Of a DNA stretch of 64,000 bases, positions 12,635 through 64,000 are shown piece by piece. Each line of letters opens with the position of its first letter. Within the stretch, counting starts at the first letter, position 1. A program made the position numbers and the translations under genes. The stretch is from NCBI GenBank assembly GCA_030456445.1, contig JAKDNM010000003.1, positions 4,981 through 68,980 on the forward strand, in the 5' to 3' direction. A model generated the notes under the pieces. The model saw only the letters and a list, made by a program, of their open reading frames with translations. It did not search any database and was not told where the DNA came from. This stretch comes from Hyphomicrobiales bacterium. GTDB lineage: Bacteria; Pseudomonadota; Alphaproteobacteria; Rhizobiales; Rhizobiaceae.

Positions 12635-12664
12635 TGACCGGCGATATCAGACGGAGTCCGGCTC

Positions 12665-16160: not shown

Positions 16161-16173
16161 GAGGATAGGAAAA

Positions 16174-16626: not shown

Positions 16627-16636
16627 CCGGATCGCT

Positions 16637-16662
16637 CGCGGCGGCGGTTATGCGCCGCCGCG
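16637..16662 (+). terminator. GC-rich stem-loop (terminator or mRNA-stabilising hairpin)
   Basis: Perfect 10-bp stem CGCGGCGGCG/CGCCGCCGCG, loop GTTATG, no U-tract. Confidence 0.4.
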
Positions 16663-16713
16663 TGGTCCTTGCGTCACCCGCTTCGGCTGGAGCGGATCAC
16701 ACATATACGGAGA

Positions 16714-17889
16714 ATGAGCCTTCCAATGATCCCGCGTACGATCTTTTCCGAGGAACACGAGATTTTCCGGCAGTCGGTACAGCGGTTCATCGCCGACGAG
16801 ATCACGCCGTTCCATGGTGAATGGGAAAAGGCTGGTATCGTGCCGCGTGAGGCATGGCTCAAGGCTGGACGCGAGGGCTTCCTGTGCATGACCATGCCGG
16901 AGGAATATGGCGGCGCCGGCGGCGATTTCCTCCTGAGCGCGATCATGGTGGAGGAGATGGCGCGCGCCGGCGCGACCGGCCCCACTTTCTATCTGCATTC
17001 CGACATCGTCGCTCCCTATATCCTTCATCACGGGACGGAGGAGCAGAAGCTTAAATGGCTTCCGAAAATGGCCACCGGGGAAGTGGTGACCGCAATCGGC
17101 ATGAGCGAGCCGTCCGGGGGGAGTGACCTTCAAAATATCAAGACCACGGCTCGGCGCGAAGGCGACGAGTATGTGATCAACGGGCAGAAGGTATTCATCA
17201 CCTCGGGGCATGCGGCGGATCTGCTGGTCCTGGCGTGCAAGACGGACCCTGACGCCGGCTCCAAGGGAGTGAGCCTCGTCCTTGTCGAGACCGATCGTCC
17301 CGGCTTCCAGCGAGGGCGGATGCTGGAGAAGATCGGCTGCAAGGCCCAGGACACGGCGGAACTCTTCTTCTCCGACCTTCGCGTGCCCGTCACGAACCTC
17401 CTCGGGGAGGAAAATCGCGGCTTTTATGTGCTGATGAAGGAACTGGCTCAGGAGAGGCTGATACAGGCGATCCGCGCGATCGGGTCTTCTGAAGCGGCCC
17501 TGGAATGGACGATTGCCTACGCGCAAGACCGCAAGATGTTCGGTCATACGCTTGCCGATTTCCAGAACACGCAATTCAAGCTGGCAGAGATGCGCGCGGA
17601 CCTGACGATGCAGCGGGTTTTCATCGACCGTTGTCTGGATCTCCATGTGCGGGGCGAGCTGGATTCGGTCGATGCAGCCATGGCGAAGCTCGTCTCCACC
17701 GAATTGCAGGGCAAGGTGATGGATCAGTGCCTGCAACTGTTCGGCGGCTGGGGCTACATGTGGGAATATCCGATAGCGCGGGCATTCGTGGATGCCCGCA
17801 TGGGACGGATCGGCGGCGGCAGCGTCGAGGTGATGAAGCAGATCATCGCGCGCAGCATGCTTGGCTCCTCCGCGAAGAAGAAGGGCTGA
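16714..17889 (+). CDS. Acyl-CoA dehydrogenase (LCAD-type catalytic Glu position)
   Basis: AIGMSEPSGGSD, NGQKVFITSG, LAQERL, QLFGGWGY, RIGGGS; start 16714 or 16726. Confidence 0.95.
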   Translation: MSLPMIPRTIFSEEHEIFRQSVQRFIADEITPFHGEWEKAGIVPREAWLKAGREGFLCMTMPEEYGGAGGDFLLSAIMVEEMARAGATGPTFYLHSDIVAPYILHHGTEEQKLKWLPKMATGEVVTAIGMSEPSGGSDLQNIKTTARREGDEYVINGQKVFITSGHAADLLVLACKTDPDAGSKGVSLVLVETDRPGFQRGRMLEKIGCKAQDTAELFFSDLRVPVTNLLGEENRGFYVLMKELAQERLIQAIRAIGSSEAALEWTIAYAQDRKMFGHTLADFQNTQFKLAEMRADLTMQRVFIDRCLDLHVRGELDSVDAAMAKLVSTELQGKVMDQCLQLFGGWGYMWEYPIARAFVDARMGRIGGGSVEVMKQIIARSMLGSSAKKKG

Positions 17890-17945
17890 AATGGTCGTGC
17901 GCACTGGTTCAATTCCGACCAGTGCTATAAGCCGGTAGCATTGGA

Positions 17946-17957
17946 TACCAATCGGCT
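17946..17957. promoter_or_regulatory. Operator site before tetR (possible autoregulation)
   Basis: TACCAATCGGCT, 2 mismatches to TACYnATnRGTA. Confidence 0.5.
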
Positions 17958-17970
17958 TGAGGACATACTT

Positions 17971-18600
17971 ATGACACTCGACAATGACGAACACCGGATG
18001 GGCATCCGCGATGAGGTCGCGGCGCTCAAGAGGGCCCGGACCATCGCGGCTGCAGTGGAGCTGTTTTACGAAAACGGCTACGAGAATACGACGCTCGATG
18101 CGGTCGCCGAAAGGCTGGGGGTGACCAAGCCGTTCATTTACGCGCATTTCCACTCGAAATCACAATTGCTCGCGGAGATATGCTCGCGTGGCATCGCCGC
18201 CTCGCTGGAGGCGATGGACAGCGTGATCCCAATGCAGGCGTCTCCGACTGAAAAGCTGCGAGTGCTGGGGCAGCGCTTCGTGACGGCCGTGCTCGAAAGC
18301 CAGATGCACATCGCCATCTTCTCCCGCGAAGAAAAGAATCTTGCGCCTGACGATTTCGTTCGAATCAACGACATGCGCCGGGATTTCGACAAGAAACTCA
18401 CAGCGCTTCTGCGCGAGGGCAGGGATAATGGCGAATTCTCGCTCAACGACGCGCATGTCGCCGCGCTCTCGATCGGCGGGATGGTGAGTTGGGCCTATGT
18501 CTGGTTCCGCCCGGCAGGCCGCTTGAAGGTGGAGCAGGTCGCCGGGGAAATGTCCCGCCTGATCCTGCATATGGTGAATGCGAAAGCGGCAAAGTCCTGA
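17971..18600 (+). CDS. TetR/AcrR family transcriptional regulator
   Basis: AAVELFYENGYENTTLDAVAERLGVTKPFIYAHF HTH; RBS GAGGA before ATG 17971. Confidence 0.95.
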   Translation: MTLDNDEHRMGIRDEVAALKRARTIAAAVELFYENGYENTTLDAVAERLGVTKPFIYAHFHSKSQLLAEICSRGIAASLEAMDSVIPMQASPTEKLRVLGQRFVTAVLESQMHIAIFSREEKNLAPDDFVRINDMRRDFDKKLTALLREGRDNGEFSLNDAHVAALSIGGMVSWAYVWFRPAGRLKVEQVAGEMSRLILHMVNAKAAKS

Positions 18601-18633
18601 AGGGATCCGCCGCGGGCTGAACAGGAAGACAAG

Positions 18634-19815
18634 ATGGCAGAGCCGTTGGCGACCGAAAGGTGCGGGCCACTCGAAGGGATAAGGGTCCTGGATCTGTCGA
18701 CCGTCGTTCTCGGCCCGATGACGGGACAATATCTTGGCGACATGGGCGCCGACGTCATCAAGGTCGAAGCCCCCGACGGCGACATCACACGTTCCATCGG
18801 GCCGCGCCGCTCCGAACGGATGGGCGCCCTGTTTCTTGCCAACAACCGCAACAAGCGAAGCATCGTACTCGACTTGAAGGTGGCCGCCGACCGGCAGGCG
18901 CTCGACCGCCTTGTCGAGAAGAGCGACGTGGTGCTGCATTCGATCCGCAGTTCCGCGGCCGAAAGGCTCGGCCTGTCTCACGAACGGCTTTCTTCCCTGA
19001 ACCCGACATTGATCTATTGCCATTTGCTGGGCTTTTCGGATCGCGGGCCCTATGCCGGAAACCCGGCCTATGACGACATCGTCCAGTCTCTATCGGGACT
19101 TGCTATGCTGCAGAAGATTGCGGCGGGCGAACCGCGTTACGTGCCCTCGATCATCGCCGACAAGATAACGGCGGTGCACGCCGCCTACGCGATCGCGCTT
19201 GGCCTTTTCCACCGTGCCAGGACGGGCCGGGGCCAGAAGGTTTCCGTGCCGATGCTGGAAACCATGGTGGCGTTTAACTCGGCGGAGCATCTGGGAGGCT
19301 GCATCTTCGAGCCAGCCGAGGGTGCGATGGGCTACGAGCCCATCCGTCACGGCATGCGTCGCCCTTTTCAGACCCGTGACGGGTTCATCTGCTTCCTGCC
19401 TTACAACGATGCGAACTGGCGTCGCTTCCTCATGATCGCTGAACGGACGGATCTGCTCGCCGATCAGCGGTTCTCGACCCAGGTCGGGCGGCAGGCGAAC
19501 CTCGCGCTGATCTGGAAGGAAGTAGCCGAAATATTGCGGCTGCGCAGCACGGCGGAATGGATGGGCCTCCTGGAAGGTTCCGACATTCCTCACGCCGTCG
19601 TGAATGATCTCGAGGATTTGCTGGACGATCCGCATCTGGAAGCAACGGGTTTCTGGGAGATGCGGACCCATCCGACGGAAGGCTTGATGCGGCTGCCCGC
19701 CAACCCGCTGCAATTTTCCGATTCGCCCGCGTCGATCCGCCGGCTTCCGCCGAGGCTCGGAGAGCATGGTGCGGAAATCCTGGAAGAGTTCGGGCTTGCG
19801 CGTCCCGCCGCGTGA
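18634..19815 (+). CDS. CaiB/BaiF family III CoA-transferase
   Basis: IRVLDLS, NRNKRS, AYDD, IADKITA catalytic Asp. Confidence 0.9.
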   Translation: MAEPLATERCGPLEGIRVLDLSTVVLGPMTGQYLGDMGADVIKVEAPDGDITRSIGPRRSERMGALFLANNRNKRSIVLDLKVAADRQALDRLVEKSDVVLHSIRSSAAERLGLSHERLSSLNPTLIYCHLLGFSDRGPYAGNPAYDDIVQSLSGLAMLQKIAAGEPRYVPSIIADKITAVHAAYAIALGLFHRARTGRGQKVSVPMLETMVAFNSAEHLGGCIFEPAEGAMGYEPIRHGMRRPFQTRDGFICFLPYNDANWRRFLMIAERTDLLADQRFSTQVGRQANLALIWKEVAEILRLRSTAEWMGLLEGSDIPHAVVNDLEDLLDDPHLEATGFWEMRTHPTEGLMRLPANPLQFSDSPASIRRLPPRLGEHGAEILEEFGLARPAA

Positions 19816-19835
19816 ATGACGCGGATGCGATTTCT

Positions 19836-19888
19836 TACTGATAAGAAGCAGTTGCTACTATAGGATAGTTGTTGTATACGCATGAGTA
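19836..19888. promoter_or_regulatory. Operator sites (TACYnATnRGTA family)
   Basis: TACTGATAAGAA 19836-19847 and TACGCATGAGTA 19877-19888, weak third copy at 19856. Confidence 0.65.
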
Positions 19889-19922
19889 TATTCTTGCGTC
19901 GACAGGAAGGGGAGGAGCTCAG

Positions 19923-20975
19923 ATGAATGCGATTTTTAGAAGCTATGCCAAGGCTGTCGCCGCCGCGGCCATGACGGGCATCGTTCTCGGTACGACGATG
20001 CCGGGCGCCTTGGCCCAGACTATCCTGAAATATTCGCCCTGGTTGCCGCCGGGCTATGTCCTGAACGGCCCGGTCTTGAAGCCCTGGATGGCCGAGATCG
20101 AGAAAGTGACCGAGGGCCGCGTCAAGGTCGAATGGCTGCCCAAGGCCGTTGGCTCCGCCGCCGCCCAGTTCGACGTCATTCGCGACGGCCTCGCTGATAT
20201 GAGCATAATCCTGCCCGGCTATACGCCGGGACGCTTTCCTCTGATGGAAATCGGCGAACTGCCACTGCTCGCCGACGATCCGGCGGTGCTCTCGCCCGTT
20301 TTCGAGCGGATCTACGAGAAGCATCTGGAGAAGCTGGAGCCGTTCAAAGGCACCCGTCTGCTCACGATATGGGCCAGCACACCGACGCAGATCGTGACCA
20401 GCAAGGGGATCGTTCAGGATGTGAGCGAACTGGCGGGCCTCAAAATGCGCGCGCCGAGCAATACGGCGGTGGAGGAGATGGAAAAGCTCGGCATAGTGCC
20501 CGTGCAGAAGCCGGTCTCGGAGATGTACGAGCTTGCCTCGTCGGGCATCGTCGACGGCACCTTCTTTCCGCTCAGCCCGATCGTCGACTGGAAGGTCGAC
20601 AAGATTCTCAAATACGTGACCAAGGTCCCGGGCGGGATGGGCCAGTCCGTCCTGGCCATTCTCGTCAATCAGGCGAAATGGGATTCCATCGACGAGAAGG
20701 ACCGACAGGCCATCATGGCCATTTCGGGCGAGAAGCTGTCGCGGCAGGTGGGCGAGGAATATGCCAAGGGCGAGATCGCGGCGCGTGAGACGCTTCTTGC
20801 CGAAGGCGTGAAGATCGAGGACGCGTCTCCTCAACTGCGCCAGCAGATCAAGGACGCGCTGGCGCCCGTAGATCAGGCCTGGATCGAAAAGGCGAAGTCG
20901 AAAGGCCTTGACGACGCGGCGGCCGTTCTCGACGACTTCCGCGCGCAGCTCGATGCCGGATCGGACGGAAAATAG
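19923..20975 (+). CDS. dctP: TRAP transporter substrate-binding protein
   Basis: Signal peptide, LKYSPWLPP, GLKMRAP; RBS GGAGG; followed by dctQ and dctM. Confidence 0.95.
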   Translation: MNAIFRSYAKAVAAAAMTGIVLGTTMPGALAQTILKYSPWLPPGYVLNGPVLKPWMAEIEKVTEGRVKVEWLPKAVGSAAAQFDVIRDGLADMSIILPGYTPGRFPLMEIGELPLLADDPAVLSPVFERIYEKHLEKLEPFKGTRLLTIWASTPTQIVTSKGIVQDVSELAGLKMRAPSNTAVEEMEKLGIVPVQKPVSEMYELASSGIVDGTFFPLSPIVDWKVDKILKYVTKVPGGMGQSVLAILVNQAKWDSIDEKDRQAIMAISGEKLSRQVGEEYAKGEIAARETLLAEGVKIEDASPQLRQQIKDALAPVDQAWIEKAKSKGLDDAAAVLDDFRAQLDAGSDGK

Positions 20976-41339: not shown

Positions 41340-41767
41340 TGATCGAAACAGCAACCGAGCCGCGCGCGGCTTCGCCCCTTCGCGGCAAGCGCATCCTGGT
41401 GGCGAAGCCCGGCCTCGACGGCCACGACGCCGGCGCCAAGGTGGTGGCGCTCGCCATGCGCGACGCCGGCGCGGAGGTGATCTATACCGGTCTGCGCAAA
41501 AGCCCCGCCTATATCGCGCGTGTCGCGATCGACGAGGATGTCGACGCGGTCGGCCTCTCGATCTTGTCGGGCAGCCACAAGGAACTCGTCGCCGAAACGA
41601 TCGCGGCCCTCAAGGAAGAGGACGCGGGCGACATCGCTCTCTTCGTCGGCGGCACGATACCGGCCGAGGACATCGATGCGCTCATCGAAATGGGCGTCAG
41701 GACGGTGTTCACCGCCGACATGAAGCTCGACGACGTGGTCGACGCGGTGGCGAAGGCGCTCGCATGA
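41336..41767 (+). CDS. Cobalamin-binding small subunit of acyl-CoA mutase
   Basis: KPGLDGHDAG (DxHxxG), GLSILSGSH, VGGTIP. Confidence 0.95.
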   Translation: MMIETATEPRAASPLRGKRILVAKPGLDGHDAGAKVVALAMRDAGAEVIYTGLRKSPAYIARVAIDEDVDAVGLSILSGSHKELVAETIAALKEEDAGDIALFVGGTIPAEDIDALIEMGVRTVFTADMKLDDVVDAVAKALA

Positions 41768-42885
41768 CAGGTCCGCTCGCCGGCATCCGCGTCATCGAGA
41801 TCGGCCACATGCTGATGGGGCCGTATTGCGGCATGCTGCTTGCCGATCTCGGCGCGGAAGTCATCAAGGTCGAGCCGCCCGACGGCGACATCGCAAGGCG
41901 CGTCAGCCCACATATGGTGGGCGAGCACAACGCCTATTTCGCAAGCCTCAACCGCAACAAGAAGAGCGTCGTCATCGACCTGGCGAGCGAGATGGGAAGG
42001 ACGGAACTTGGCCGGCTCATCTCTAGCGCTCGCGCCTTGCTGACCAATTTGCGGCCGTCGGCCATCCGCAAGCTCGGCCTCACCTATGATGATCTGAAAA
42101 GCTGGAACCCCAAGCTCGTCTGCGTGGCGCTGACCGGCTACGGGTTGGAGAGCCCCTACAGCGAGCGCCCGGCCTACGACTACGTGATCCAGGCGCTGAC
42201 CGGCGTCATGAACCTGACGGGCGATCCGGACGGGCCGCCGACCAAGACCGGCTATTCCGCCGTCGACAATTCCGCCGGCATCATGGGCGCCGTGGGTTTG
42301 CTCGCCAAGCTTGTCGAGGGCAAGGGCGGGCAGGTCGACATCGCCATGTACGACGTCATGCTCTCGCAACTGAACTACCTCGCAGGCGCATGGCTGAATG
42401 CCGGCGAGACCGCGCGGCGCATCGAGCGTTCGTCGCATCCCTATATCGTGCCGGCGCAGATATTCCCGACGCGCGACGGCTGGGTGACGCTCTTCATCAC
42501 GCACGACGATTTCTGGCGCCGCTTCGCCGGAGAGGTGGGCGAAGGGCACTGGCTCACCGATCCGCGCTTCGCCACCATGGCCGGCCGCCGCTCCAATCGT
42601 GCGCTGGTGCTGGGTGAGATCGAAGCGGCGCTCGCAAACCATGGCACGGATGAACTCGTGGCGCGGCTGACGCCTCTCGGCGTAGTCGTCGCGGGGGTGG
42701 AGACGATGGAGCAGGCGCTTGCGAGCGAGCATGTGCGGGCGCGCGGCATGGTGGCGGAGATCGCGGGCGAGGTGCCGCTGCGCGTGGTCGGCAATCCGAT
42801 CAAGATCTCCGGCATGGAGGAAGGGTTCGCCCCGCCGCCGGCGCTTGGCCAGCACGGCGCGCTGGTGAAGGAAGGCGGCGGATGA
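41764..42885 (+). CDS. CaiB/BaiF family III CoA-transferase
   Basis: IRVIEIG, NRNKKS, AYDY, AVDNSAG catalytic Asp. Confidence 0.9.
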   Translation: MTGPLAGIRVIEIGHMLMGPYCGMLLADLGAEVIKVEPPDGDIARRVSPHMVGEHNAYFASLNRNKKSVVIDLASEMGRTELGRLISSARALLTNLRPSAIRKLGLTYDDLKSWNPKLVCVALTGYGLESPYSERPAYDYVIQALTGVMNLTGDPDGPPTKTGYSAVDNSAGIMGAVGLLAKLVEGKGGQVDIAMYDVMLSQLNYLAGAWLNAGETARRIERSSHPYIVPAQIFPTRDGWVTLFITHDDFWRRFAGEVGEGHWLTDPRFATMAGRRSNRALVLGEIEAALANHGTDELVARLTPLGVVVAGVETMEQALASEHVRARGMVAEIAGEVPLRVVGNPIKISGMEEGFAPPPALGQHGALVKEGGG

Positions 42886-43778
42886 ACGCGCGGGCGCAGA
42901 TGACGCTCGACAGGCGCGCGCTCGGACGGGCTCTGTCGCGCGCGGCCAATGCCAGCGTGGAGGAGATATTGGCGGCCGACGCGGGCGAGGCTGCGACACG
43001 CGCGCGCCGCATCGGCGTGACCGGGCCGCCCGGCGCCGGCAAGAGCACCCTAATCGCCGCGCTCGCCCGTTATCGTCTGGAGCACGCCGGGCGTGTCGCT
43101 ATCATCGCCGTCGATCCGTCGAGCTCGAAAACGCATGGTTCGGTGCTTGGGGACCGCATCCGCATGGACCGCCTCGTCGACGATCCGCGGGTCTACATCC
43201 GCTCGCTGGCGAGCCGTGGCGCCAGTGACGGGCTGGCGGAGAACCTGCCCGAGATCCTGGCCGTGCTCGATGATTTCGGCTTCGACGAGATCATCCTCGA
43301 GACGGTCGGCGTCGGCCAGTCGGAATTCGCCGTGCGCGACCTTGTCGATATCGAGCTTCTGGTGATGGCGCCGGGCGCGGGCGATCAGATCCAGGCCATG
43401 AAGGCGGGCATCATCGAGACGGCCGACATCTATGTGGTCAACAAGGCCGACCAGCCCGGCGCGGCGCGCGCCGAAACCGAATTGCGCGCAATCCTGACGA
43501 TGACAGCCGGCTCCGCGCCCGTGCCGCCGATCATCAGGGTTCAGGCGGACACCGGTGAGAAGATGGATGAACTCGATGCAGCGATCGAGGATTGCGTGCG
43601 CCGCCGCAAGGAGGGGGACGCCGATGCGGTGAGGCGCGGGCGCCATCGCGTCAAGGGTCTCATCGTGCGCCGCCTGAACGAAGTTCTCTTGGATATGCCT
43701 GTCGCCTTGGAGGGCCGGCCGATCCGGGAAGTCTACGACGCGGTCATGGACACGCTGTCGCAACGCACGGGGCCGTGA
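42882..43778 (+). CDS. meaB: MeaB/ArgK-type G3E GTPase, mutase chaperone
   Basis: GPPGAGKST, VDPSS, GDRIRM, ETVGVGQSE, VNKAD. Confidence 0.92.
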   Translation: MNARAQMTLDRRALGRALSRAANASVEEILAADAGEAATRARRIGVTGPPGAGKSTLIAALARYRLEHAGRVAIIAVDPSSSKTHGSVLGDRIRMDRLVDDPRVYIRSLASRGASDGLAENLPEILAVLDDFGFDEIILETVGVGQSEFAVRDLVDIELLVMAPGAGDQIQAMKAGIIETADIYVVNKADQPGAARAETELRAILTMTAGSAPVPPIIRVQADTGEKMDELDAAIEDCVRRRKEGDADAVRRGRHRVKGLIVRRLNEVLLDMPVALEGRPIREVYDAVMDTLSQRTGP

Positions 43779-54626: not shown

Positions 54627-55742
54627 TCACCTCGGCGCGTTGCCGGCATTGTGCTTTTCCGGGAAGAGATCGGCCAATCCTTCGACCGAGGCTTTGCAGA
54701 CCCCGCGTTCGGTGATCAGTCCGGTGACGAGCCTCGCCGGCGTGACGTCGAAGGCCGGGTTGGCGGCCGGCGTCGTTTCCGGCGATATCCTGACGCGCGT
54801 CGTGCGCCCGTCCTCGCCGCGCCCCTGCACGAAGGACACCTCGTCGGCGGAGCGCTCCTCGATCGGGATTTCCTTCAAGCCGTCGCGCACCGTCCAGTCG
54901 ATGGTCGGAGAGGGCAGGCCGACATAGAAGGGCACGTGGTTGTCGTGGGCGGCGAGCGCCTTCAGATAGGTGCCGATCTTGTTACAGACATCGCCGTTCG
55001 CCGTGGTGCGGTCGGTGCCGACGATGACCATGTCGACCATGCCGCGCTGCATCAGGTGCCCGCCGGCATTGTCGACGATCAGCGTGTGCGGCACGCCGTG
55101 ACAGCCGAGTTCCCACGCGGTGAGATGCGCGCCTTGATTGCGCGGCCGCGTCTCGTCGACATAGACATGGACCGGCACGCCCTCCTCGGTGGCCAGATAG
55201 ATCGGCGCCGTCGCCGTGCCGTAATCGACGGTCGCGACCCATCCGGCATTGCAGTGGGTGAGGATATTGACCGGTTCGCCCGGTTTCTTGCGCGAGGCGA
55301 TCTCGCGGATGAGCGCCAGCCCGTTGCGGCCGATGGCGCGGTTGATCTCGACATCCTCGTCGGCGATTTCGGCGGCGCGCCGGTAGGCGGCGTCGGCGCG
55401 TTCCGAAACCGGCAGCGGCTTCAGTGTCCCGCGCATGTCGTCCAGCGCCCAGCGCAGATTGATGGCGGTGGGCCGCGTGGCGTACAGCGTCTCCCATGCC
55501 GCGTCGAGCGCTTCGTCGGAGGGGTCGCGGCGCATTTCCAGCGCCATGCCGTAGGCCGCCGTCGCTCCGATCAGCGGCGCGCCGCGCACCCACATGTCGC
55601 GGATGGCGACCGCGGCGGCATCCAGCGTGTGCAGTGTCTCGACGCGGAATTCATGCGGCAGCCAGCGCTGGTCGATGATGTCGACGCCGTGCCCGTCCTC
55701 GTTCATCCAGATCGAGCGATAATGGTGTTCTCCGACTCTCAT
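54627..55742 (-). CDS. mtnA: S-methyl-5-thioribose-1-phosphate isomerase
   Basis: [36 protein letters not shown]. Confidence 0.95.
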
Positions 55743-57007
55743 GCGTGGCTTGCCTTCTCGATCCGTACCGCGAGCGCGTTGACCTCTTCGATCGAATGAA
55801 TATGCCGGCGGTTTACCGCAAGGTGCCGGCCAAGCTCGATCGCGCCCGTCTCGCATCTGGCGCGCAGGCCCGTATCCTCAATGGTCTCGAAATCGGCGTT
55901 GTGTGCGAGACCGAGCACGCGCCGGTGCATTTCCACCCCGGCGAAGCCAAGCGTATCGGCCCAGAGGTCGGCGAGGAAATGATCGAGCGCCTGCTCGGCG
56001 CCGAGCCAGTCGCCCTGATCCTCAAACAACGCGCGCTGGTAGAGGATGCCGTTGCGCTCCTCGCGCCAGAGCCGGGCAAACTCCTCGCGGAAGACCGCCC
56101 ATGCTTCGATGATGGTGGCGAAGAGCCATTGCCGCATCGCTTCGCGGCTGCCCTGCGCTTCGTGGCCGCGCTGGGAAAAGTACGCCATCCAGAGATTGGA
56201 GAAATACATGCCCGTGTCGAGCGCCATCGGCCCGTAGAAGGCGAATTCCGGGTCGATCACCTTCGTCTCGCTGTCGGTGACCATGATCGAGCCGGAATGC
56301 AGATCGCCATGCACCATGGTCTGCGCGTTGGCGCAGAAGAGGTGCTTCATGTGCTGGGCGGCGACCTTCAAATCGCGGTCGGCCCGCAGCCGCGCCACGA
56401 TGCCATCCAGTTCCGGCGAAGTGTGCCGGTTACGCGGCGCGTCGAAATAGGGATCGGAGAAGACGAGGCCTTCGGTGATGTCGCAAAGTTCGATATTGCC
56501 GGCGAAGAGCGCGAGGTCGGCCTTGCGTTCGGGCGCTTCCATGGCGAGGTCGGAGCCGCGGAAGAGCGTGCGCGCCATGAACAGGCCCATATGCCGGGCA
56601 AGATCCGGCAATTGCCTGCCCTCGATCAGGGCGCGCCTGAGGATCACATGCGGCGACAGAAAATCCATGACGATCAGCGCCTGCGTCTCGTCGAAATGAT
56701 GGATCGCCGGCACCATGCCCGGATCGCGCGCATTCTGGCGGGTGAGCGCGTGATATTCGAAGAAGGAGCGCTTGAGCGGCAGCGGCCATGAATCGCCTAC
56801 AAGCCGCACATAAGGCAGCGCCTGCTTGACCACGACCGAGCCGCGATCGCCCTCGACGATGAAGACGAGGTTCAGATTGCCGTCGCCGACCTCGCGCACC
56901 TTCCAACTCTTGCCGTCAGGCCCGACACGCTCCTTGAGCGCGGCAATGCCCGCCAGCCGCGCGGGCAATGTCTCGACCGTCAGCGGTTCGAACACAAGCT
57001 TGTCCAT
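55739..57007 (-). CDS. mtnK: S-methyl-5-thioribose kinase
   Basis: [38 protein letters not shown]. Confidence 0.95.
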
Positions 57008-57027
57008 TCGACCTCCCGCCAGTTTAT

Positions 57028-59079
57028 CTATCGCAACGCCGCCGCGATATTCCCGCCGTCCACCGTGGTCACATCCGCCGTCGTGCGCTCCGCCAGCGCC
57101 TGATGCAAAAAAGCCTGGGCGACATGCCCGGCCTTCACCTCCTCGTGCAGAAGATTGCCGGCCATGTAGTCCTTTTCCGAGACGCCGCGCGCCTTCGACC
57201 GGCTGGCGATCATGGCGTCGTCAAGCAAGCCGGAGCGGATGCGGTCGGCGTTGACGGCGTTGGAGCGGACGCCGATCGCGCCATATTCCAGCGCGTATTG
57301 CCTAGACAGGAACAATGTCGCTGCCTTGGGCAGGCCGTAGGCGCCGAAATTGGCGCCCGGATTGACTGCCTGTTTCGACGTGTTGAAGAGAAGCACGCCA
57401 CCCGTGCCCTGCTCCTTGAAGATGCGGACCGCGTTCTGCGCCACGCTTTGATGCGAGAAGAAATTCAGCTCGAAACTCTTGCGCAACAGCGCGTCATCGA
57501 TGTCCCCGATCTTGCCTTCGAAGGCTGCACCGGCATTCGAGACGACGAGATCGACACCGCCGAAATTCTTCACCGCCGCGTCGAAGGCGGCGCGGACGGA
57601 TTTCGGATCGGTCACGTCGCAGGCGACGCCGATGGAACCGTTGCCGGCAGCCTTGGCGGCGGCTTCGGCCCTGCCGCCGTCGAGATCGGCCACGACGACA
57701 TGCGCTCCGGTGTCGGCAAAGAGTTTCGCGGCCGCCGCACCGATTGCGCCGCCGCCGCCGGTGACGAGCAGCACCTGCCCGGTGAGCGGCTTGGGCTTGT
57801 TTCCAGCAAGCTTCGCCTGCTCCAGCGACCAGTATTCCAGCTCGAACAGGTCGGACATGGGCAACGGATGGAAAGTACCGGCCGCTTCCGCGCCCCAGAC
57901 CGCCTCGATCCACATCTCGCCGATATCGGACGCGATGCGCGCGTCCTTCAACGTGCGGCCGAAGCCGAACATGCCGAGCCCCGGCACCAGCGCCAGCCTC
58001 GGCATCGGATCGAGCATGGTGCGGGCGACGTCGTCGCGGGCGTTATTGGTGGCAAAGTAGTCGATGTAGTCGGCGACGTATTTCGCCACGCGCGCCTTCA
58101 CCTTCGCCGCATAACCGGCGGCGTCGCCGCCTTCGGGCGCATCGAGGACCAGCGGCCCGGTCTTGATGCGGATCGACAGGTCGGGCGTGCTGACGCCCGA
58201 TGCCGCCAGCCGCTCGAGGTCGGCATTGGACAGGAACTCCACGATCTTCGGCGAGGTGCGGAAATCGGTGACGAAGCGGTCGAAACCGCCCTCGCCGCGT
58301 GGGAAGGCGACAGCGCCGCGCAGCATCGGCGCGATTTCTTCCGGCCGCGCCAGTTTCGCCGGCAGGGCGGCCTTCTTGCCTGGCCTGGCCTTGGAAGCGA
58401 TATATTGTTCCGCTACCGTAACGTAGTGGATCATGCGGTCGTAGGCCTGCCGCGCATCGTCGCCGAAGGTGAAGATGCCATGCTTGTCGAGGATCAGCCC
58501 TTCGACGCCCGTATCCTGCTCGTAGATATCGGCGGCGGCCCTGGCGAGGTCGAAGCCCGGCTTGATATAGGGCACGAAGCCCATCTTCGGCCCGAAGACC
58601 TCGCGGCAGAGCGGTTCGCTGTCTTCCTGGTCGACGATGCCGAGGATGGCGGTCGAATGCGTATGGTCGACGAATTTGTGCGGCAGGAAGGCGTGAAGCA
58701 GCGTCTCGACCGAAGGGTTCGGGGAGGACGGGTCGATCAAATTGGCGCGTTGCAGCGCCACCATGTCCTCGTCGGAGAGTTTTTCCAGCGCGCGCGCCTT
58801 CAAAAGCGGCTTCAGCTTGACGGCGGGCAGGCCGGCAGGCTCGATGACACCCATGTCCCAGCCGCTGCCCTTGACGCAGAGCACGTCCCATTCGTCGCCG
58901 ATGAGATCCGCCATCCGAAGCTTGACCGATGTATTGCCGCCGCCATGCAGGACCAGCCTCGACTCGCCGCCCAGCAGCCTGGTCGTATAGACACGCAGCG
59001 CCAGGTCACGCCCGATGCCCTTTGCCGCATAAGCCGCAACGAGCGCCTCGGCCTCTTCGTCCTTCCACAGATTGAGCAT
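57028..59079 (-). CDS. Bifunctional class II aldolase / short-chain dehydrogenase
   Basis: HGGGNTSVK, KGSGWD, PSVETLLH, DHTHS, HG metal motifs; SDR TGGGGAIG, SNAG, YGLPK. Confidence 0.9.
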   Translation of the reverse strand: MLNLWKDEEAEALVAAYAAKGIGRDLALRVYTTRLLGGESRLVLHGGGNTSVKLRMADLIGDEWDVLCVKGSGWDMGVIEPAGLPAVKLKPLLKARALEKLSDEDMVALQRANLIDPSSPNPSVETLLHAFLPHKFVDHTHSTAILGIVDQEDSEPLCREVFGPKMGFVPYIKPGFDLARAAADIYEQDTGVEGLILDKHGIFTFGDDARQAYDRMIHYVTVAEQYIASKARPGKKAALPAKLARPEEIAPMLRGAVAFPRGEGGFDRFVTDFRTSPKIVEFLSNADLERLAASGVSTPDLSIRIKTGPLVLDAPEGGDAAGYAAKVKARVAKYVADYIDYFATNNARDDVARTMLDPMPRLALVPGLGMFGFGRTLKDARIASDIGEMWIEAVWGAEAAGTFHPLPMSDLFELEYWSLEQAKLAGNKPKPLTGQVLLVTGGGGAIGAAAAKLFADTGAHVVVADLDGGRAEAAAKAAGNGSIGVACDVTDPKSVRAAFDAAVKNFGGVDLVVSNAGAAFEGKIGDIDDALLRKSFELNFFSHQSVAQNAVRIFKEQGTGGVLLFNTSKQAVNPGANFGAYGLPKAATLFLSRQYALEYGAIGVRSNAVNADRIRSGLLDDAMIASRSKARGVSEKDYMAGNLLHEEVKAGHVAQAFLHQALAERTTADVTTVDGGNIAAALR

Positions 59080-59179
59080 TCCAGCCTTTCCCCCGCCGGC
59101 GTGCGGCGGCATCTCTTCTTCCTGATCGGAATAGGGGGCTCGGGCCTTTCATTCAAGCCGGATGTGTTTGGCGGCGAAC

Positions 59180-59716
59180 CTACCTTATCAACGCAGCGAT
59201 CTCGCGGAAGTGGGAATCGGCCGCCGTGCCCAGCCATTCGAACAGGGCCATTTCGGTGGTCACGATCTCGGCGCCATGGCGGCGCATGCGCTCGATAGCG
59301 GCCTCCTTGCTTTCCGCCCGGCGCGAGCCGATCGCGTCGCGAACCACGTAAACGGCATGGCCGGCGTCGATCAGGCCGAGCACCGTCTGCAGCACGCAGA
59401 CATGCGCCTCGCAGCCGGCAACGAGGATATCGGGGCGATCCTTCGGCAGAAGCTCGAAGAAGCCGTCGGCGCGGGCGGCGTCGAACTCCATCTTGGCAAG
59501 CGTCGGCAGGCCTTCGACGGCGAGTTCCGGCACGGTCGGGCCAAGCCCCTTCGGGTTCTGCTCTGTGACGACCGCCGGCACGCCGAGTCTTTTCGCGGCC
59601 TCGATCAGCCTTCCGGCATTGACAAGCACGCCGCTCGCGCCGTCGATCGCCGGCATCAGCCTCTGCTGGAAGTCGATCACCAGAAGCGTGGTGCGGTCGC
59701 GGTCGATCGTCCTCAT
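59180..59716 (-). CDS. Isochorismatase family hydrolase (YcaC-like)
   Basis: LVIDFQ, TEQNPKGLG, GCEAHVCVLQT. Confidence 0.9.
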   Translation of the reverse strand: MRTIDRDRTTLLVIDFQQRLMPAIDGASGVLVNAGRLIEAAKRLGVPAVVTEQNPKGLGPTVPELAVEGLPTLAKMEFDAARADGFFELLPKDRPDILVAGCEAHVCVLQTVLGLIDAGHAVYVVRDAIGSRRAESKEAAIERMRRHGAEIVTTEMALFEWLGTAADSHFREIAALIR

Positions 59717-60354
59717 CGTGCATCTCCCTTGGCGAGCAACGCCGCCCGCCGCGCAATCGCTTCTACCATCAATTCGCGCGCCGAGGCGCCGAACATGCGA
59801 ATGCGGCCGGTATGGGCGAGGAGAAGCAGGCCGGTCGCATGGGCGAAGAGGTCGGCGACCGTGAGGTTGGCGGCCGTCTCGTCGCAGCCCAGCGCGCGCG
59901 CGGCCTCGCCGATCGGCGAAAGGGCGGCCTGAAGCGCGGCGTTCAGCGCCTTGTCGCGCTCGCGGCCGACGCCTTTCGGGCGCATGCCGCCGCGAAACAG
60001 ATAGAAGCCGAGATCGAGATCGCGCGGGTTCTCGGCATAGAAGTCGAAAAAGGCAAGGGCCGCCGCCGAAAGCTTCGCCCCCGGTTCTTTCGGCTTCGAC
60101 GCAGCGGCTCCGATCGCTTCGGCGAGCCGTGCAACCGAGGCGGAAAGCACTTCGGCATAGAGCGCCTCCTTCGAATCGAAATGGAAATAAAGCGCGGCCG
60201 GCGTGTAGCCGGCCGCCGCCGCGATACCCCGCAAGGACGCCGTCTCCAGCCCATCCGCCTCGAAGATCTGCCGCGCAGCATCGAGGATGCGCTCGCGCTT
60301 GGCTTCGGTGGCGGCCTGTCTTCGAGGCACTGTCGGGCTTGCGGCCAATACCAT
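59713..60354 (-). CDS. TetR/AcrR family regulator
   Basis: ILDAARQIF...SLRGIAAAAGYTPAALYFHF HTH; only the last 213 codons of the 688-aa track ORF are real. Confidence 0.9.
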   Translation of the reverse strand: MVLAASPTVPRRQAATEAKRERILDAARQIFEADGLETASLRGIAAAAGYTPAALYFHFDSKEALYAEVLSASVARLAEAIGAAASKPKEPGAKLSAAALAFFDFYAENPRDLDLGFYLFRGGMRPKGVGRERDKALNAALQAALSPIGEAARALGCDETAANLTVADLFAHATGLLLLAHTGRIRMFGASARELMVEAIARRAALLAKGDAR

Positions 60355-60400
60355 TCTAACGCCGTTAAAGTTTTCGCTTGACGTTTTTCTAACGCTGTTC
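60354..60400. promoter_or_regulatory. Divergent promoter with repeated operator
   Basis: TTCTAACGCCGTTA 60354-60367 and TTCTAACGCTGTTC 60387-60400 flank TTGACG 60378-60383. Confidence 0.55.
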
Positions 60401-60444
60401 GATTTTATCCGCAAGCCGTGAAACGGACAATCGGAGATCACGCC

Positions 60445-62001
60445 ATGCTGATGACCGCCGCCGACTATCGAGAGTCGCTTCGCGCCTATAAGCCGCGCGT
60501 CTTCGTCGAGGGCGAGCGCATCGAAAGCGTGGCGGATTCGGCCATCCTGAGGCCGGGTATCAACGCCATCGGCGTCACCTACGACCTCGCCCATGTCGCC
60601 GAGCACGCGGAGGTGATGACCGCGCGCCAGCATACGTCCGGCAAGATCGTGAACCGCATGGTGCATGTCGACCGGGATTCGGCGGATCTTCTGGCCAAGC
60701 TCGAAGCCGTGCGCCTTGCCTGCAAGATTTCGGGCTGCGCCCAGCGCTACCTCACCCATGATGCCTTCTGCGGCATCTTCCAGGCCACGCGCCTTGCCGA
60801 CGACGTGCATAAAACCGATTACCACCAGCGCTTCCTCGCCTATATGCACGACGTTCAGGATCGCGACCTGACCCTTGGCGTCGCCATGACCGACGCCAAG
60901 GGCGACCGCGCGAAACGGCCGGGCCAGCAGGCCAACCGCGACGCCTATGTCCACATCAAGGAGCGGCGGAAGGACGGCATCGTCATCTCCGGCGCCAAGG
61001 CGATCGTCACCGGCGCGCCCTACATGCACGAGTTCCTCGTCATGCCGTGCCGCACGCACACGAAGGAAGACGCCGATTTCGCCGTGTGCTGCGCCGTGCC
61101 GGTCGATGCGGAGGGCGTCACGATCGTCGCGCGCAAGGCCGGAAGGCCGGGCGAGCCGGCGGCGAAATTCTCCGGCAAATACGGCCAGTCCACCGGCGTG
61201 GTGCTGTTCGAGAACGTGTTCGTGCCGTGGGAGCGCGTCTTCATGGCCGGCGAGACCGAGGAGGCGGGGTATCTCACCACCTCCTACGCCACCCATCACC
61301 GGCAGACCTGCATCGGCGCGCGGGCCGGCTTCGGCGATCTCCTGATCGGCGCCGGCGCGCTGATGATCGAGGCAAATGGCCTCGATCCCGACAAGCACGG
61401 CCATATCCGCGAACAGATGGTGGAACTGATCAAGATCGTCGAGGGCTTTTACGCCTGCGGCATCGCCGCTTCCGTTCATGCCACGCGCGAGACGGCCGGC
61501 AATGTCATGCCGGATGTCGTCTTCTCCAATATCGGCAAGCTTCTGCTCGCCACCCAGATATACGACATGCATCGGCTCGCCCATACCGTCTCGGGCGGGC
61601 TGATCGTCACACTGCCGGGGCCGGCGGAAGATCACAATCCCGAGACCGCCGGCTCGCTCGCCGCCGTGCTCGGAGCACGCGCGGACATTCCCTATGCCAG
61701 CCGCATGGAGGCGGCGCGCTTCGTGGAAGATTTGACCGTCTCCGACCAGGCCGGCTGGTATTCGGTGATCTCGCTGCATGGCGGCGGCTCGCCGGAGGCG
61801 ATGAAACGCGAGATCTGGCGCAACTACCCCGTAATGGAGAAGGTCGAACTGGTCGAGGCGCTTCTGGAGCGCGGCGTACTCGACGATGGCAGGCGCGTGT
61901 CCAGACAGCCCGGCCGCTGCTGCGTTTCGGGATGCACCGTGCGCGACCTTCCGGGCGTGGAAGCCAAGCCGACGCTTGCGGTTTCCGAGGCCGCGGAATA
62001 G
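60445..62001 (+). CDS. 4-hydroxybutyryl-CoA dehydratase / HpaB-fold flavoprotein with atypical ligands
   Basis: MLMTAADYRESL, AMTDAKGDR, SGAKAIVTG, FENVFVPWERVF, HRQ, SLHGGGSP. Confidence 0.85.
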   Translation: MLMTAADYRESLRAYKPRVFVEGERIESVADSAILRPGINAIGVTYDLAHVAEHAEVMTARQHTSGKIVNRMVHVDRDSADLLAKLEAVRLACKISGCAQRYLTHDAFCGIFQATRLADDVHKTDYHQRFLAYMHDVQDRDLTLGVAMTDAKGDRAKRPGQQANRDAYVHIKERRKDGIVISGAKAIVTGAPYMHEFLVMPCRTHTKEDADFAVCCAVPVDAEGVTIVARKAGRPGEPAAKFSGKYGQSTGVVLFENVFVPWERVFMAGETEEAGYLTTSYATHHRQTCIGARAGFGDLLIGAGALMIEANGLDPDKHGHIREQMVELIKIVEGFYACGIAASVHATRETAGNVMPDVVFSNIGKLLLATQIYDMHRLAHTVSGGLIVTLPGPAEDHNPETAGSLAAVLGARADIPYASRMEAARFVEDLTVSDQAGWYSVISLHGGGSPEAMKREIWRNYPVMEKVELVEALLERGVLDDGRRVSRQPGRCCVSGCTVRDLPGVEAKPTLAVSEAAE

Positions 62002-62038: not shown

Positions 62039-62710
62039 ATGGACGAGAGCGCGAGCAATCAAGGAACGACCACGGTCGACTGGTATTTCGATCTGGTATC
62101 GCCCTTCGCCTTCCTGCAGCTAAATTCGCTTGACCGCCTCCCGAAAGGGCTGAAGATCGTGCCGAAGCCGGTGCTTCTCGGCGCCATCCTCGGCCATTGG
62201 GGGCAGCTTGGCCCCGCCGAGATCGGTCCGAAGCGGCTCCACACCTACCGGCTGGCGCAGTGGATCGCCTCGGAGCGAGGCATCCGCTTCACCATGCCCG
62301 AGCGCCACCCGTTCAACCCGCTGAAGGCGTTGCGCATGCTCGCCGCGCTCGGCCCCGATTTGCAGACGGTGCGGCGCGCCTTCGATTTCGTCTTCGTGGA
62401 GGGCCGCGCGCCGGACACCGACGAGGCGATAGAGGATTTCGGCCGCTATCTCATGGTCTCCGGTGCCCCTATCGAGCTTGCCGGCGAGCAATCGGCTAAG
62501 GACAGGCTGAGGCAACTGACCGACGAGGCGATCGACCGGGGGGTGTTCGGCGTTCCGACCTTCCATGTCGACGGCGAATTGTTCTGGGGTGACGACGCCA
62601 CGGGCATGCTTGCCGCCTACCTGAACGACCGATCCTTTTTCAAGAAAGGCGAGATGGCCCGCATCGCCACGCTGCCGGTGGGCATCCAGCGGAACACGGG
62701 GCGTTCGTAG
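62039..62710 (+). CDS. 2-hydroxychromene-2-carboxylate isomerase / GST-kappa (DsbA family)
   Basis: WYFDLVSPFAFL, RGVFGVPTF, LFWGDD. Confidence 0.88.
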   Translation: MDESASNQGTTTVDWYFDLVSPFAFLQLNSLDRLPKGLKIVPKPVLLGAILGHWGQLGPAEIGPKRLHTYRLAQWIASERGIRFTMPERHPFNPLKALRMLAALGPDLQTVRRAFDFVFVEGRAPDTDEAIEDFGRYLMVSGAPIELAGEQSAKDRLRQLTDEAIDRGVFGVPTFHVDGELFWGDDATGMLAAYLNDRSFFKKGEMARIATLPVGIQRNTGRS

Positions 62711-62738: not shown

Positions 62739-63428
62739 TTATTCCGGCTTGCCGCCGCCGATGCCGAACTCCTCCGCGTCGCGGAAAAGTTCGCCATGGT
62801 CCAGCCGCGAAACCTCGATCACGGCCTGCGTGCGGCTATAGACGTGAAGCTTGCGCAATATCTCCGACACATGCGCCTTCACCGTCGTCTCGCCCACCTG
62901 CAACTCGTAGGCGATCTGCTTGTTGAGCAGCCCCTGCCTGAGCATGCCGAGCACCCGCATCTGCTGGGGCGTCAGCGTGGCCAAACGACGCGCAAGCTCG
63001 GCGCGATCTTCGCGCCCCGGATCGTCCGGCTGCTCGGCGAAATCGCGCGGCACGCAGACTTCGCCTTCCATCACCTCGCGGATGGCCCTGACAAGATCGT
63101 CCTTGCGGGCGGATTTCGGGATGAAGCCCGCCGCGCCGTAGGAAAGCGTTTCCGACACGACACGCGGGTCCTCATGGCCCGACACGACGACGACCGGCAG
63201 GCGCGGATAGCGCGTGCGGATGGTCAACAGCCCCTCGAAGCCCTGGACGCCGGGGATCGACAGATCGAGCAGCGCGAGATCGAAATCCTGTCCCTCTTCG
63301 AGCACATCGAGTGCTTCCTCGATCAGCCGCGCCTCGACCGTCTCGGCATCCGGATAGGCAAGCTGCAACGCGCTCTGGAGGGCTTCGCGGAACAGAGGGT
63401 GGTCGTCGACGATGAGGAAACGCAGCAT
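62739..63428 (-). CDS. NarL/LuxR family response regulator, ErbR/AgmR-like
   Basis: LIVDDHPLFREA, LLDLSIPG, GFIPKS, LTPQQ...NKQIAYEL...ETTVKAHVSEILRKL. Confidence 0.92.
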   Translation of the reverse strand: MLRFLIVDDHPLFREALQSALQLAYPDAETVEARLIEEALDVLEEGQDFDLALLDLSIPGVQGFEGLLTIRTRYPRLPVVVVSGHEDPRVVSETLSYGAAGFIPKSARKDDLVRAIREVMEGEVCVPRDFAEQPDDPGREDRAELARRLATLTPQQMRVLGMLRQGLLNKQIAYELQVGETTVKAHVSEILRKLHVYSRTQAVIEVSRLDHGELFRDAEEFGIGGGKPE

Positions 63429-63488: not shown

Positions 63489-64000
63489 TCAGCCGACGAA
63501 GGCGCGCTCCACCACGAAATCGGCGGGCTGGCTATGCGAGCCTTCGGTAAAGCCGGCCTTCTCCACCAGTGCCTTGACGTCGTGCAGCATGGCCATCGAG
63601 CCGCAGATCATGACGCGGTCGCCGGCGGGATCGAACGGCGCCGCGCCGATATCCGTAAAGAGCCGGCCTTCCTCGATCAGCGCCGTGATACGGCCCATGC
63701 GCGGGAACTTCCCCCTGGTCGTCGAAGCGTAATAGGTGAGCCGGCCATTGGTCAGTTCGCCGATCAGCGGGTCCTCGACGCTCTGCCGGTAGAGCCCGGC
63801 GCCATATTCGAGTTCGGCGACATCGCGGCAGGTATGGGTAAGCACGATCTGGCCGAATTTTTCGTAGGTCTCGGGATCGCGGATGAGGCTGGCGAAGGGC
63901 GCGATGCCGGTGCCGGTCGAGATCATGTAGAGGCGCTTGCCCGGCGTCAGCGCGTCGAGCACCAGCGTGCCCGTCGCTTTCTGGCGCAGAAGCACCGTAT
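63489..64000 (-). CDS. fpr: Ferredoxin-NADP+ reductase, 3' part (cut by window edge)
   Basis: KATGTLVLDAL, STGTGIAPF, MICGS, C-terminal VVERAFVG. Confidence 0.92.
   Translation of the reverse strand, partial: TVLLRQKATGTLVLDALTPGKRLYMISTGTGIAPFASLIRDPETYEKFGQIVLTHTCRDVAELEYGAGLYRQSVEDPLIGELTNGRLTYYASTTRGKFPRMGRITALIEEGRLFTDIGAAPFDPAGDRVMICGSMAMLHDVKALVEKAGFTEGSHSQPADFVVERAFVG

Follow-up and report, generated by a model that had tools for sequence, protein, structure and literature searches.

What does a protein do that has the fold of 4-hydroxybutyryl-coenzyme A (CoA) dehydratase (AbfD) and carries other residues at several of the positions on which that enzyme relies? The question is raised by a gene at positions 60445–62001, on the forward strand, of a 64,000-nucleotide stretch of DNA (hereafter the window) from a Hyphomicrobiales bacterium (contig JAKDNM010000003.1); the gene encodes a 518-residue protein, the query of the comparisons described here, which ends in a cysteine-rich tail. 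Our comparisons assign it to the AbfD branch of the HpaB/AbfD superfamily, and there to a widespread, strongly conserved and discrete clade without the AbfD residue set; they place its gene in a transcription unit with a conserved divergent TetR gene and a conserved, predicted palindromic operator lying over the promoter. The subfamily is real, widespread and uncharacterised, its unusual features being an apparently permuted active site and the cysteine arm, and a literature search found no paper on it. On the sequence evidence, the protein is not to be filed as an AbfD or an HpaB enzyme.

The protein and its clade

The translation matches the Pfam families HpaB_N and HpaB_C (4.5e-84 and 2e-53), which also cover AbfD. 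The nearest solved structures found by HMMER are two 4-hydroxybutyryl-CoA dehydratases, 1u8v from Clostridium aminobutyricum (E 7e-92) and 6vjr from Nitrosopumilus maritimus (E 1e-83), whereas the top match among HpaB-type monooxygenases, 9lft, reaches only 1e-34. An AlphaFold2 (AF2) model built from 94 sequences has a predicted local distance difference test score (pLDDT) of 92.8 and a predicted template modelling (TM) score of 0.89, and Foldseek superposes it on 1u8v with TM scores of 0.88/0.93 and a root-mean-square deviation of 1.8 Å; the three-domain fold of AbfD is thus present in the model. We prefer the start codon at 60445 over an upstream GTG at 60418, because most of 60 related loci share with it an ATG-CTG-ATG start (M-L-M) that has a purine-rich stretch of the GGAG type before it. 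A search of sequencing runs with the query sequence returned metagenomic DNA runs only, and no RNA runs.

How far does the family extend? Two homologue searches gave more than 5000 matches each. The best 120 matches of one of them are 76–95% identical to the query, and the few named members among them are mostly Rhizobiales and Azospirillum, with one member of the Rhodobacterales. A genome scan yielded 581 loci with homologues; the best 80 of these, to which all synteny counts given below refer, come from Bradyrhizobium, Bosea, Microvirga, Azospirillum, Paracoccus, Roseovarius and others; Porticoccus, a gammaproteobacterium, is represented as well. The family is a large one, found in soil and water bacteria. 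For residue conservation we inspected about 315 sequences, comprising 197 unique members of the query's subclade and 118 from a search seeded with a 66% identical relative, P0122; most of the named ones are Alphaproteobacteria, and two names are in use for the members inspected, "4-hydroxybutyryl-CoA dehydratase" (JGI) and "4-hydroxyphenylacetate 3-hydroxylase family protein" (NCBI).

Across the 197 and the 118 sequences, nine cysteines (C93, C98, C202, C216, C289, C338, C492, C493 and C497) and six histidines (H74, H195, H284, H285, H397 and H445) are invariant or nearly so. Residues Y102, A292, T250 and I442, which replace AbfD residues as described below, are fixed or nearly fixed in both sets. 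Over the roughly 315 sequences C93, C98, R101, Y102, H284, H285, R286, C289 and A292 are strictly invariant, and T189 is nearly so. Because the residue pattern is fixed in both sets of family sequences, it is more than a chance feature of one genome. Over the 197 sequences, 225 of 518 positions, the site residues included, are at least 98% conserved; on this ground we rejected a reading of the protein as a pseudoenzyme.

The clade stands apart from its relatives. In a library of representatives at 50% identity, P0122 is the only other full-length sequence with the pattern; the next relatives are 38–39% identical to the query, and the AbfD ligands C99, C103 and C299 are retained in the majority of these. 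In a quick tree whose deep nodes are weak, the query and P0122 share a separate long stem (0.44; Shimodaira–Hasegawa-like approximate likelihood ratio test, 99) outside the AbfD clade of 1u8v and the CCHYC representatives. These group together elsewhere in that tree, so that the query does not fall within the clade of the characterised enzymes.

The active-site residues and the cysteine tail

In AbfD, the [4Fe–4S] cluster is bound by C99, C103, C299 and H292, while T190, E257, Y296 and E455 matter for its activity as a dehydratase, T190 being the partner of flavin N5; the active site is located at the subunit interface (bioRxiv 10.1101/2020.02.05.935528). A first-pass annotation of this DNA had listed the ligands and catalytic residues in agreement with that report, and the residues that it had read in the query, C98-A-Q-R-Y102, H285 to A292 and RCCVSGC, are all found in the translation of 60445–62001. 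We mapped AbfD onto the query twice, by HMMER alignment to 1u8v and with MAFFT, with the same result, and the alignment to 6vjr agrees. Among the cluster ligands, C99 and H292 correspond to C98 and H285, and C103 and C299 to Y102 and A292; among the catalytic residues, T190, E257, Y296 and E455 correspond to T189, T250, C289 and I442. Both alignments therefore bear out the substitutions that had been proposed (Tyr for C103, Ala for C299, Cys for Y296 and a replacement of both glutamates), and neither restores the canonical ligands: Y102 and A292 occupy two of the four ligand positions in every family member examined, and T189 is the sole one of the four catalytic residues to be kept. The earlier suggestion that the protein is not a working 4-hydroxybutyryl-CoA dehydratase is thus supported by sequence, with two of four ligands and three of four catalytic residues replaced in a protein that lies outside the AbfD clade.

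Has the metal site been lost, or has it been rebuilt? The two site segments, read from the translation, are C93-K-I-S-G-C98-A-Q-R-Y102 (60721–60750, forward strand) and H284-H285-R-Q-T-C289-I-G-A292 (61294–61320, forward strand). The first contains a family-specific cysteine, C93, which had been absent from the earlier residue list and is as invariant as C98. Counting it, residues C93, C98, C289, H285 and Y102 make up the same three cysteines, one histidine and one tyrosine as in AbfD, with their positions permuted. In both AF2 models described below, C93 lies near the end of helix 79–96, C98 lies in a loop and Y102 starts helix 102–122, whereas H285, C289 and A292 fall within the long helix 271–310 at i, i+4 and i+7. 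Also retained in the clade is the immediate sequence context of the AbfD cluster ligands, CxQR and HR. A cysteine at column 93 also occurs in six other representatives of the superfamily that keep the canonical ligands, which gives a weak hint that this position may lie near the site. We infer that the metal site of the clade has been rebuilt rather than lost, because C93 restores the composition of three Cys, His and Tyr, because the contexts are kept, and because of the helix positions and the occurrence of Cys at column 93 elsewhere.

The comparison with AbfD can be drawn more widely. Besides the three-domain fold, at 32–39% identity to 1u8v depending on the method, the query has in common with AbfD C99, H292, T190, the two sequence contexts and a conserved MTDxKGDR loop. 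Unlike AbfD, its clade has Tyr, Ala, Cys, Thr and Ile at C103, C299, Y296, E257 and E455, respectively, adds the invariant C93 and H284 as well as a tail of about 45 residues with the motif QPGxCCxxGC and a terminal AAE, forms a separate group in aerobic Proteobacteria, and occurs in gene contexts with TetR and an ISOC-type hydrolase, or with CitE, PrpD and CoA-transferase genes, not in 4-hydroxybutyrate pathways.

The tail motif, Q488-P-G-R-C492-C493-x-x-G496-C497-x-V-(P/R)-x-x-P503, is encoded at 61906–61953 (forward strand; QPGRCCVSGC at 61906–61935). In an alignment of 150 family sequences, Q488, P489, C492, C493, G496 and C497 are conserved throughout, and mean conservation is 0.62 in the linker that precedes the motif (residues 475–487) and 0.40 in residues 498–515. 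The final A-A-E (61990–61998, forward strand) forms the C-terminus of 97 of the 150 members, preceded by a spacer whose length and sequence differ between members, and looks like a conserved anchor or recognition tag. At residue 500 (61942–61944) the query has Arg (GCTVRDLP) where 95% of the 150 sequences have Pro (consensus x-V-P).

Residues 478–518 have pLDDT values of 43–67 in two AF2 runs, one with a mixed-depth and one with a family-only alignment, and both cofactor-free monomer models leave the tail undocked from the core; the tail is predicted to be a flexible arm in this state. Searched against PDB sequences, the 45-residue tail gave a chance match only (insulin-like 3 A chain, E 0.2). 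Against Pfam it matched the Oxidored-like family PF09791 (CCxSGCxxC) over 11 residues with 14.1 bits, below the threshold of 24 (E 0.039), and these PDB and Pfam searches detected no homology to ArsD, MerA or any Fe–S domain.

What might such an arm do? C-terminal cysteine arms occur in mercuric reductase (MerA) and in high-Mr thioredoxin reductase (TrxR), and the As(III) site of ArsD consists of C12, C13 and C18 in the motif CCSTGVC. Like the MerA and TrxR arms, the tail is a predicted flexible segment at the end of a putative flavoprotein and bears a vicinal cysteine pair, and its CCxxGC motif resembles that of ArsD; unlike these proteins, the clade has an unrelated fold, no detected homology to them and no metal-resistance context. 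Three readings come into question: the tail may cap or complete the core site, it may by analogy act as a dithiol relay like the MerA and TrxR arms, or it may be a metal(loid) site like that of ArsD. In the first case it could conceivably act in trans, given the location of the active site of AbfD at the interface between subunits. The first-pass annotation had proposed the tail as an alternative metal site; the invariance of the tail cysteines in homologues speaks for that proposal, whereas the three cysteines and the histidine offered by the core and the undocked tail of the models speak against it. A different Cys-rich C-terminal tail, …RCCSAYGSENC…, was seen in P0192, an AbfD-type representative with canonical ligands and the catalytic Glu and Tyr residues; it is a single case and may be due to chance.

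Regulator, operator and gene neighbourhoods

Upstream of the AbfD-like gene, and divergent from it, lies a gene for a 213-residue TetR-family regulator (59713–60354, reverse strand; TetR_N 5.5e-15), which starts with the ATG at 60354. An orthologue with 55–71% identity is divergent in 62–66 of the 80 related loci. The sequence TCTAACNNNGTT has two matches in the 64 kb, against 0.05 expected, and both fall in the 90-nucleotide intergenic region. The first copy, TCTAACGCCGTT (60355–60366), is a half-degenerate version of the family palindrome TCTAAC-N3-GTTAGA and abuts the TetR start codon; the second, TCTAACGCTGTT (60388–60399), lies just downstream of a TTGACG hexamer resembling a −35 element (60378–60383), in the −35 to −10 interval of the putative promoter of the AbfD-like gene. 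The arrangement TTGAC-(n)-TCTAAC-N3-GTT is found in nearly all of 60 related intergenic regions, where the operator follows TTGAC directly, once or twice, and is often a perfect palindrome, TCTAAC-N3-GTTAGA. The locus thus combines a protein with the TetR_N helix-turn-helix domain, a divergent orientation and a palindrome at the promoter, and the statistics and conservation of the operator support the prediction that the regulator controls the locus through it, in line with the divergent TetR and repeated operator noted at first pass. In one related locus, from an alphaproteobacterial metagenome-assembled genome (L020, about 5800–6000), the distance from operator to start has grown to 285 nucleotides, and the extra DNA, in which two long inverted repeats lie (for example GATCGGGAAGTCCCCTT...AAGGGGACTTCCCGATC), looks like a small inserted repeat element.

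The constant partner of the system had not been mentioned at first pass. It is a gene for a 178-residue isochorismatase-family cysteine hydrolase of the ISOC/MAR1/YcaC type (59180–59716, reverse strand; PF00857 1.7e-29), whose start is overlapped by the TetR stop codon by 4 nucleotides and a homologue of which is present in 51–58 of the 80 loci. Its matches in the PDB are 8rl0 (2e-26), 2b34 (4e-25) and 1yac (4e-9), and a candidate Asp-Lys-Cys triad can be picked by eye in the segments VIDFQ, LAKMEF and HVCV. None of the NCBIfam equivalogs was reached by this hydrolase (YcaC, 46 bits against 310).

Downstream, the gene that had been called GST-kappa encodes a DsbA-fold protein like 2-hydroxychromene-2-carboxylate (HCCA) isomerase and GST kappa (62039–62710, forward strand; Pfam DSBA PF01323, 1.3e-20; PDB matches 3fz5, 2.6e-18, 2imd, 3e-11, and GST kappa 1r4w, 9.5e-5). 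It begins 37 nucleotides past the stop codon of the AbfD-like gene, with no terminator-like site in the gap, and its product contains the segment DLVSPF, whose S-P-F lies at what we take to be the position of the catalytic Ser of HCCA isomerase and GST kappa. While such a gene does follow, as the first-pass annotation had it, it is not a constant partner: a DsbA-fold homologue occurs within 6 kb in 13 of the 80 loci, mostly on the far side of the hydrolase, and is thus accessory. No gene is conserved downstream of the AbfD-like gene, the most frequent cluster being found in 14 of the 80 loci.

A different context is seen in a sister subclade that is 62–70% identical to the query and has the same invariant residues. 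Nine of the ten places fetched for it, representing about six distinct arrangements, put the gene beside other CoA-pathway genes. These encode an HpcH/CitE-type lyase (nearest to CitE, the itaconate-pathway lyase RipC/Ccl, the "acyl-CoA lyase beta chain" 8khl and mitochondrial CLYBL), an MmgE/PrpD-family protein (nearest to IRG1/cis-aconitate decarboxylase and iminodisuccinate epimerase) and one or two family III CoA-transferases (nearest to succinate–glutarate and succinyl-CoA:mesaconate CoA-transferases). At two places the genes overlap by 4 nucleotides and a gap of 3 or 16 nucleotides precedes the AbfD-like gene. At one locus, genes for a RipB/Ich-like hydratase and for an acyl-CoA dehydrogenase are present in addition.

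The likeness to the itaconate set of Ict, Ich (RipB, a hydratase of the MaoC fold) and Ccl (RipC) lies in the Ccl/CitE-like lyase, in the family III CoA-transferases related to mesaconate and glutarate transferases and in the single RipB/Ich-like hydratase. Unlike that set, most sister-subclade places have the AbfD-fold protein as companion instead of a MaoC hydratase and add an IRG1/PrpD-like gene; no gene of this kind is present at the locus of the query itself. Because the matches of the neighbours stay below the equivalog cut-offs, the sister-subclade pathway is, as far as sequence can tell, related to but not identical with itaconate degradation. The TetR-type and CoA-pathway contexts are mutually exclusive in the sample examined, and in a quick FastTree phylogeny of uncertain root and weak deep nodes the CoA-pathway sequences make up two or three lineages, which lie on the side of the outgroup.

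Some further neighbours were seen along the way. In the sister-subclade loci L081 and L082 (5092–5661 and 306–875), a gene upstream of the CitE-like gene encodes a 189-residue protein without a Pfam match, which begins with a hydrophobic stretch that by eye looks like a signal peptide and carries a long repeat rich in His, Gln and Arg, …HPQRHQQRQWHGQR…. In the window itself, the DsbA-fold gene is followed by a LuxR-type response regulator gene (62739–63428, reverse strand; nearest ErdR, at 210 bits against a cut-off of 390) and by what looks by eye like a ferredoxin–NADP reductase gene running off the window (63489–64000, reverse strand); neither is conserved beside the AbfD-like gene in other loci. 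On the other side, 55739–59112 (reverse strand) holds a gene for S-methyl-5-thioribose kinase (TIGR01767, above cut-off at 500 bits) adjoining one for a bifunctional, 694-residue class II aldolase/short-chain dehydrogenase (NF006192, 1091 bits), a pair that suggests a variant disposal route for methylthioribose or a 5-deoxy-sugar. Farther away, a cluster at 10185–20975 comprises an AMP-binding ligase, a cyclase-family hydrolase, a family III CoA-transferase, two thiolase-like proteins, an acyl-CoA dehydrogenase, a TetR protein, a second family III CoA-transferase and a TRAP DctP protein, and at 41764–43778 a third family III CoA-transferase gene lies immediately upstream of the gene for MeaB, the methylmalonyl-CoA mutase chaperone.

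Possible chemistry and its alternatives

What, then, could the protein do? The idea put forward at first pass, a distinct flavoenzyme, is plausible from sequence, in that the protein retains the fold, T189 and the residues that are invariant across the superfamily, and none of the findings named at first pass as refuting it turned up. We tentatively favour, with confidence somewhat short of even, a more specific model: a TetR-controlled flavoprotein with a permuted metal site and a flexible cysteine arm that acts on a CoA thioester. It would not be a phenol hydroxylase, and its chemistry would be unlike the ketyl-radical dehydration of 4-hydroxybutyryl-CoA. The neighbours in the paralogous sister subclade suggest to us that CoA thioesters of short dicarboxylic acids are what the family works on, the likeliest substrates being short unsaturated or hydroxylated dicarboxylyl-CoA compounds of the itaconate, mesaconate or glutaconate type. 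AbfD has a second activity as vinylacetyl-CoA delta-isomerase, and itaconyl-CoA is a carboxylated vinylacetyl-CoA; for this reason a double-bond shift and/or hydration seems the likeliest reaction, and the protein may work like the isomerase half of AbfD.

In the site that we envisage, C98 and H285 would be kept from AbfD, C93 would stand in for C103 and C289 for C299, and Y102 may assume the role of Y296; three cysteines, one histidine and one tyrosine could suffice for an Fe–S cluster or another metal. H285 might serve as the base and C289 or Y102 as a proton relay. The QPGxCCxxGC...AAE arm would cap or complete this site, possibly in a neighbouring subunit of a tetramer, or alternatively serve as a redox-active thiol relay. 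The regulator would repress both divergent units until a pathway metabolite binds, and the co-regulated ISOC-type hydrolase, joined in some genomes by the putatively glutathione-dependent isomerase-like protein, would act on the same family of compounds.

Several observations weigh against this model. We identified no substitutes for E257 and E455, which AbfD needs for its activity, and the arm did not dock in the cofactor-free monomer models. The hosts are aerobic, and an exposed Fe–S cluster would be a liability in them. The CoA-pathway neighbours belong to the sister subclade and not to the query's own, in which a CoA-transferase gene is nearby in only 4 of the 80 loci; the three family III CoA-transferase genes of the window lie at least 17 kb from the AbfD-like gene, and the 64 kb contain no CitE/HpcH or PrpD homologue. 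Moreover, all sister-subclade neighbours fall below the curated equivalog cut-offs when compared with models of the itaconate pathway, which makes the substrate a guess.

A broader version goes further, and we regard it as unlikely as a whole. Here, the active site would have been rebuilt by swapping Cys103 with Tyr296 and moving Cys299 to position 93, and a mobile arm with three cysteines and an AAE anchor would reach its own or a neighbouring site, where it would give the cluster oxygen tolerance or shuttle electrons or sulfur, while the enzyme isomerises or hydrates thioesters of the itaconyl-CoA type. If true, the clade would be a new class of AbfD-fold enzymes, and the Alphaproteobacteria would have a step, so far overlooked, by which dicarboxylates of the itaconate family are catabolised or detoxified.

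Among the alternatives, we give a minor but real chance to a flavin- and thiol-dependent redox enzyme without an Fe–S cluster, in which C93/C98 or C289 together with the CCxxGC arm would form a dithiol–disulfide or persulfide relay or a metal(loid) site. The vicinal cysteines on a flexible C-terminal tail with its conserved AAE, the aerobic hosts and the recurrence of GST-type and DsbA-fold neighbours are consistent with it, as is the weak tail match to PF09791; that match, however, is below threshold, and the tail is without the fourth cysteine of the domain. Furthermore, the protein does not have the fold of pyridine-nucleotide–disulfide oxidoreductases, there are no metal-resistance genes in the neighbourhood, and H285 and the CxQR context, which are typical of the AbfD cluster site, are invariant.

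It is quite improbable that the tail cysteines supply the missing [4Fe–4S] ligands, two or three of them joining C98 and H285 in cis or from a neighbouring subunit. Exactly two canonical ligands were lost and an invariant motif of three cysteines was gained, the AbfD active site is at a subunit interface, and ligation of a [4Fe–4S] cluster by a tandem Cys-Cys is known in APS reductase; yet the equally invariant C93 and C289 already restore three cysteines and a histidine, and two AF2 runs give the tail no docked position.

Could the clade carry out the dehydratase reaction after all, with relocated ligands, perhaps in an oxygen-tolerant manner with the cysteine tail shielding the cluster? The closest solved structures are 4-hydroxybutyryl-CoA dehydratases, the composition of three Cys, His and Tyr is kept along with T190, H292 and C99, JGI names members accordingly, and CoA-transferases lie beside the sister subclade. 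We nevertheless think this very unlikely: E257, E455 and Y296, reported as important for dehydratase activity, are Thr, Ile and Cys family-wide, the clade lies outside the AbfD clade in the quick tree, we saw no genes of a 4-hydroxybutyrate pathway, either among the neighbours that are conserved or in the sister-subclade places annotated with Pfam, and the sister-subclade neighbours are enzymes of the C5/C6-dicarboxylate type.

A group D two-component flavin monooxygenase, that is, an HpaB-like aromatic hydroxylase in which the cysteines are incidental or regulatory, is highly doubtful as well: the superfamily and Pfam domains shared with HpaB-type oxygenases such as Thermus HpaB (2yyg, TM about 0.81), the NCBI names of members, the aerobic hosts and the resemblance of the downstream gene to the HCCA isomerase of aromatic pathways are outweighed by sequence matches to HpaB structures that are far worse than those to AbfD (1e-34 against 7e-92), by missed cut-offs for the NCBIfam equivalogs TIGR02309 (134 against 480 bits) and TIGR02310 (84 against 885 bits), by a position in the tree apart from the HpaB-like clade (sequences with Tyr at the C299 column), by the partly kept Cys/His pattern of the AbfD site, by the CoA-ester operons of the sister subclade, and by the finding that no gene, and so no flavin reductase, recurs beside the TetR, hydrolase and, at times, DsbA-fold genes in the 80 loci, whose neighbours were not given a scan aimed at reductase domains.

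What is the relevance of such a clade? The usual database names of the family are probably wrong, in that the sequence evidence contradicts the name 4-hydroxybutyryl-CoA dehydratase and leaves the hydroxylase name unsupported. AbfD is a textbook radical enzyme, and a natural relative of this kind lets the needs of a site of three Cys, His and Tyr be dissected. The gene abfD (K14534) is a key marker of the archaeal hydroxypropionate/hydroxybutyrate carbon-fixation cycle in metagenome studies (PMC8139981); since it is used in this way, alphaproteobacterial members of the clade could be counted as false positives. The contexts of the sister subclade point to an acyl-CoA step in dicarboxylate metabolism beside IRG1-like and citramalyl-CoA-lyase-like genes, and such chemistry would be relevant to the turnover of itaconate in soil and host-associated bacteria.

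Apart from this clade, Ser, Ser and Ala stand at the positions of the three cysteine ligands in some AbfD-like representatives (P0131, P0151 and P0167), which come from more than one lineage in the quick tree. Each of them retains E257 and Y296, and P0131 and P0167 have E455 as well; these proteins are candidates for cluster-free, isomerase-only enzymes.

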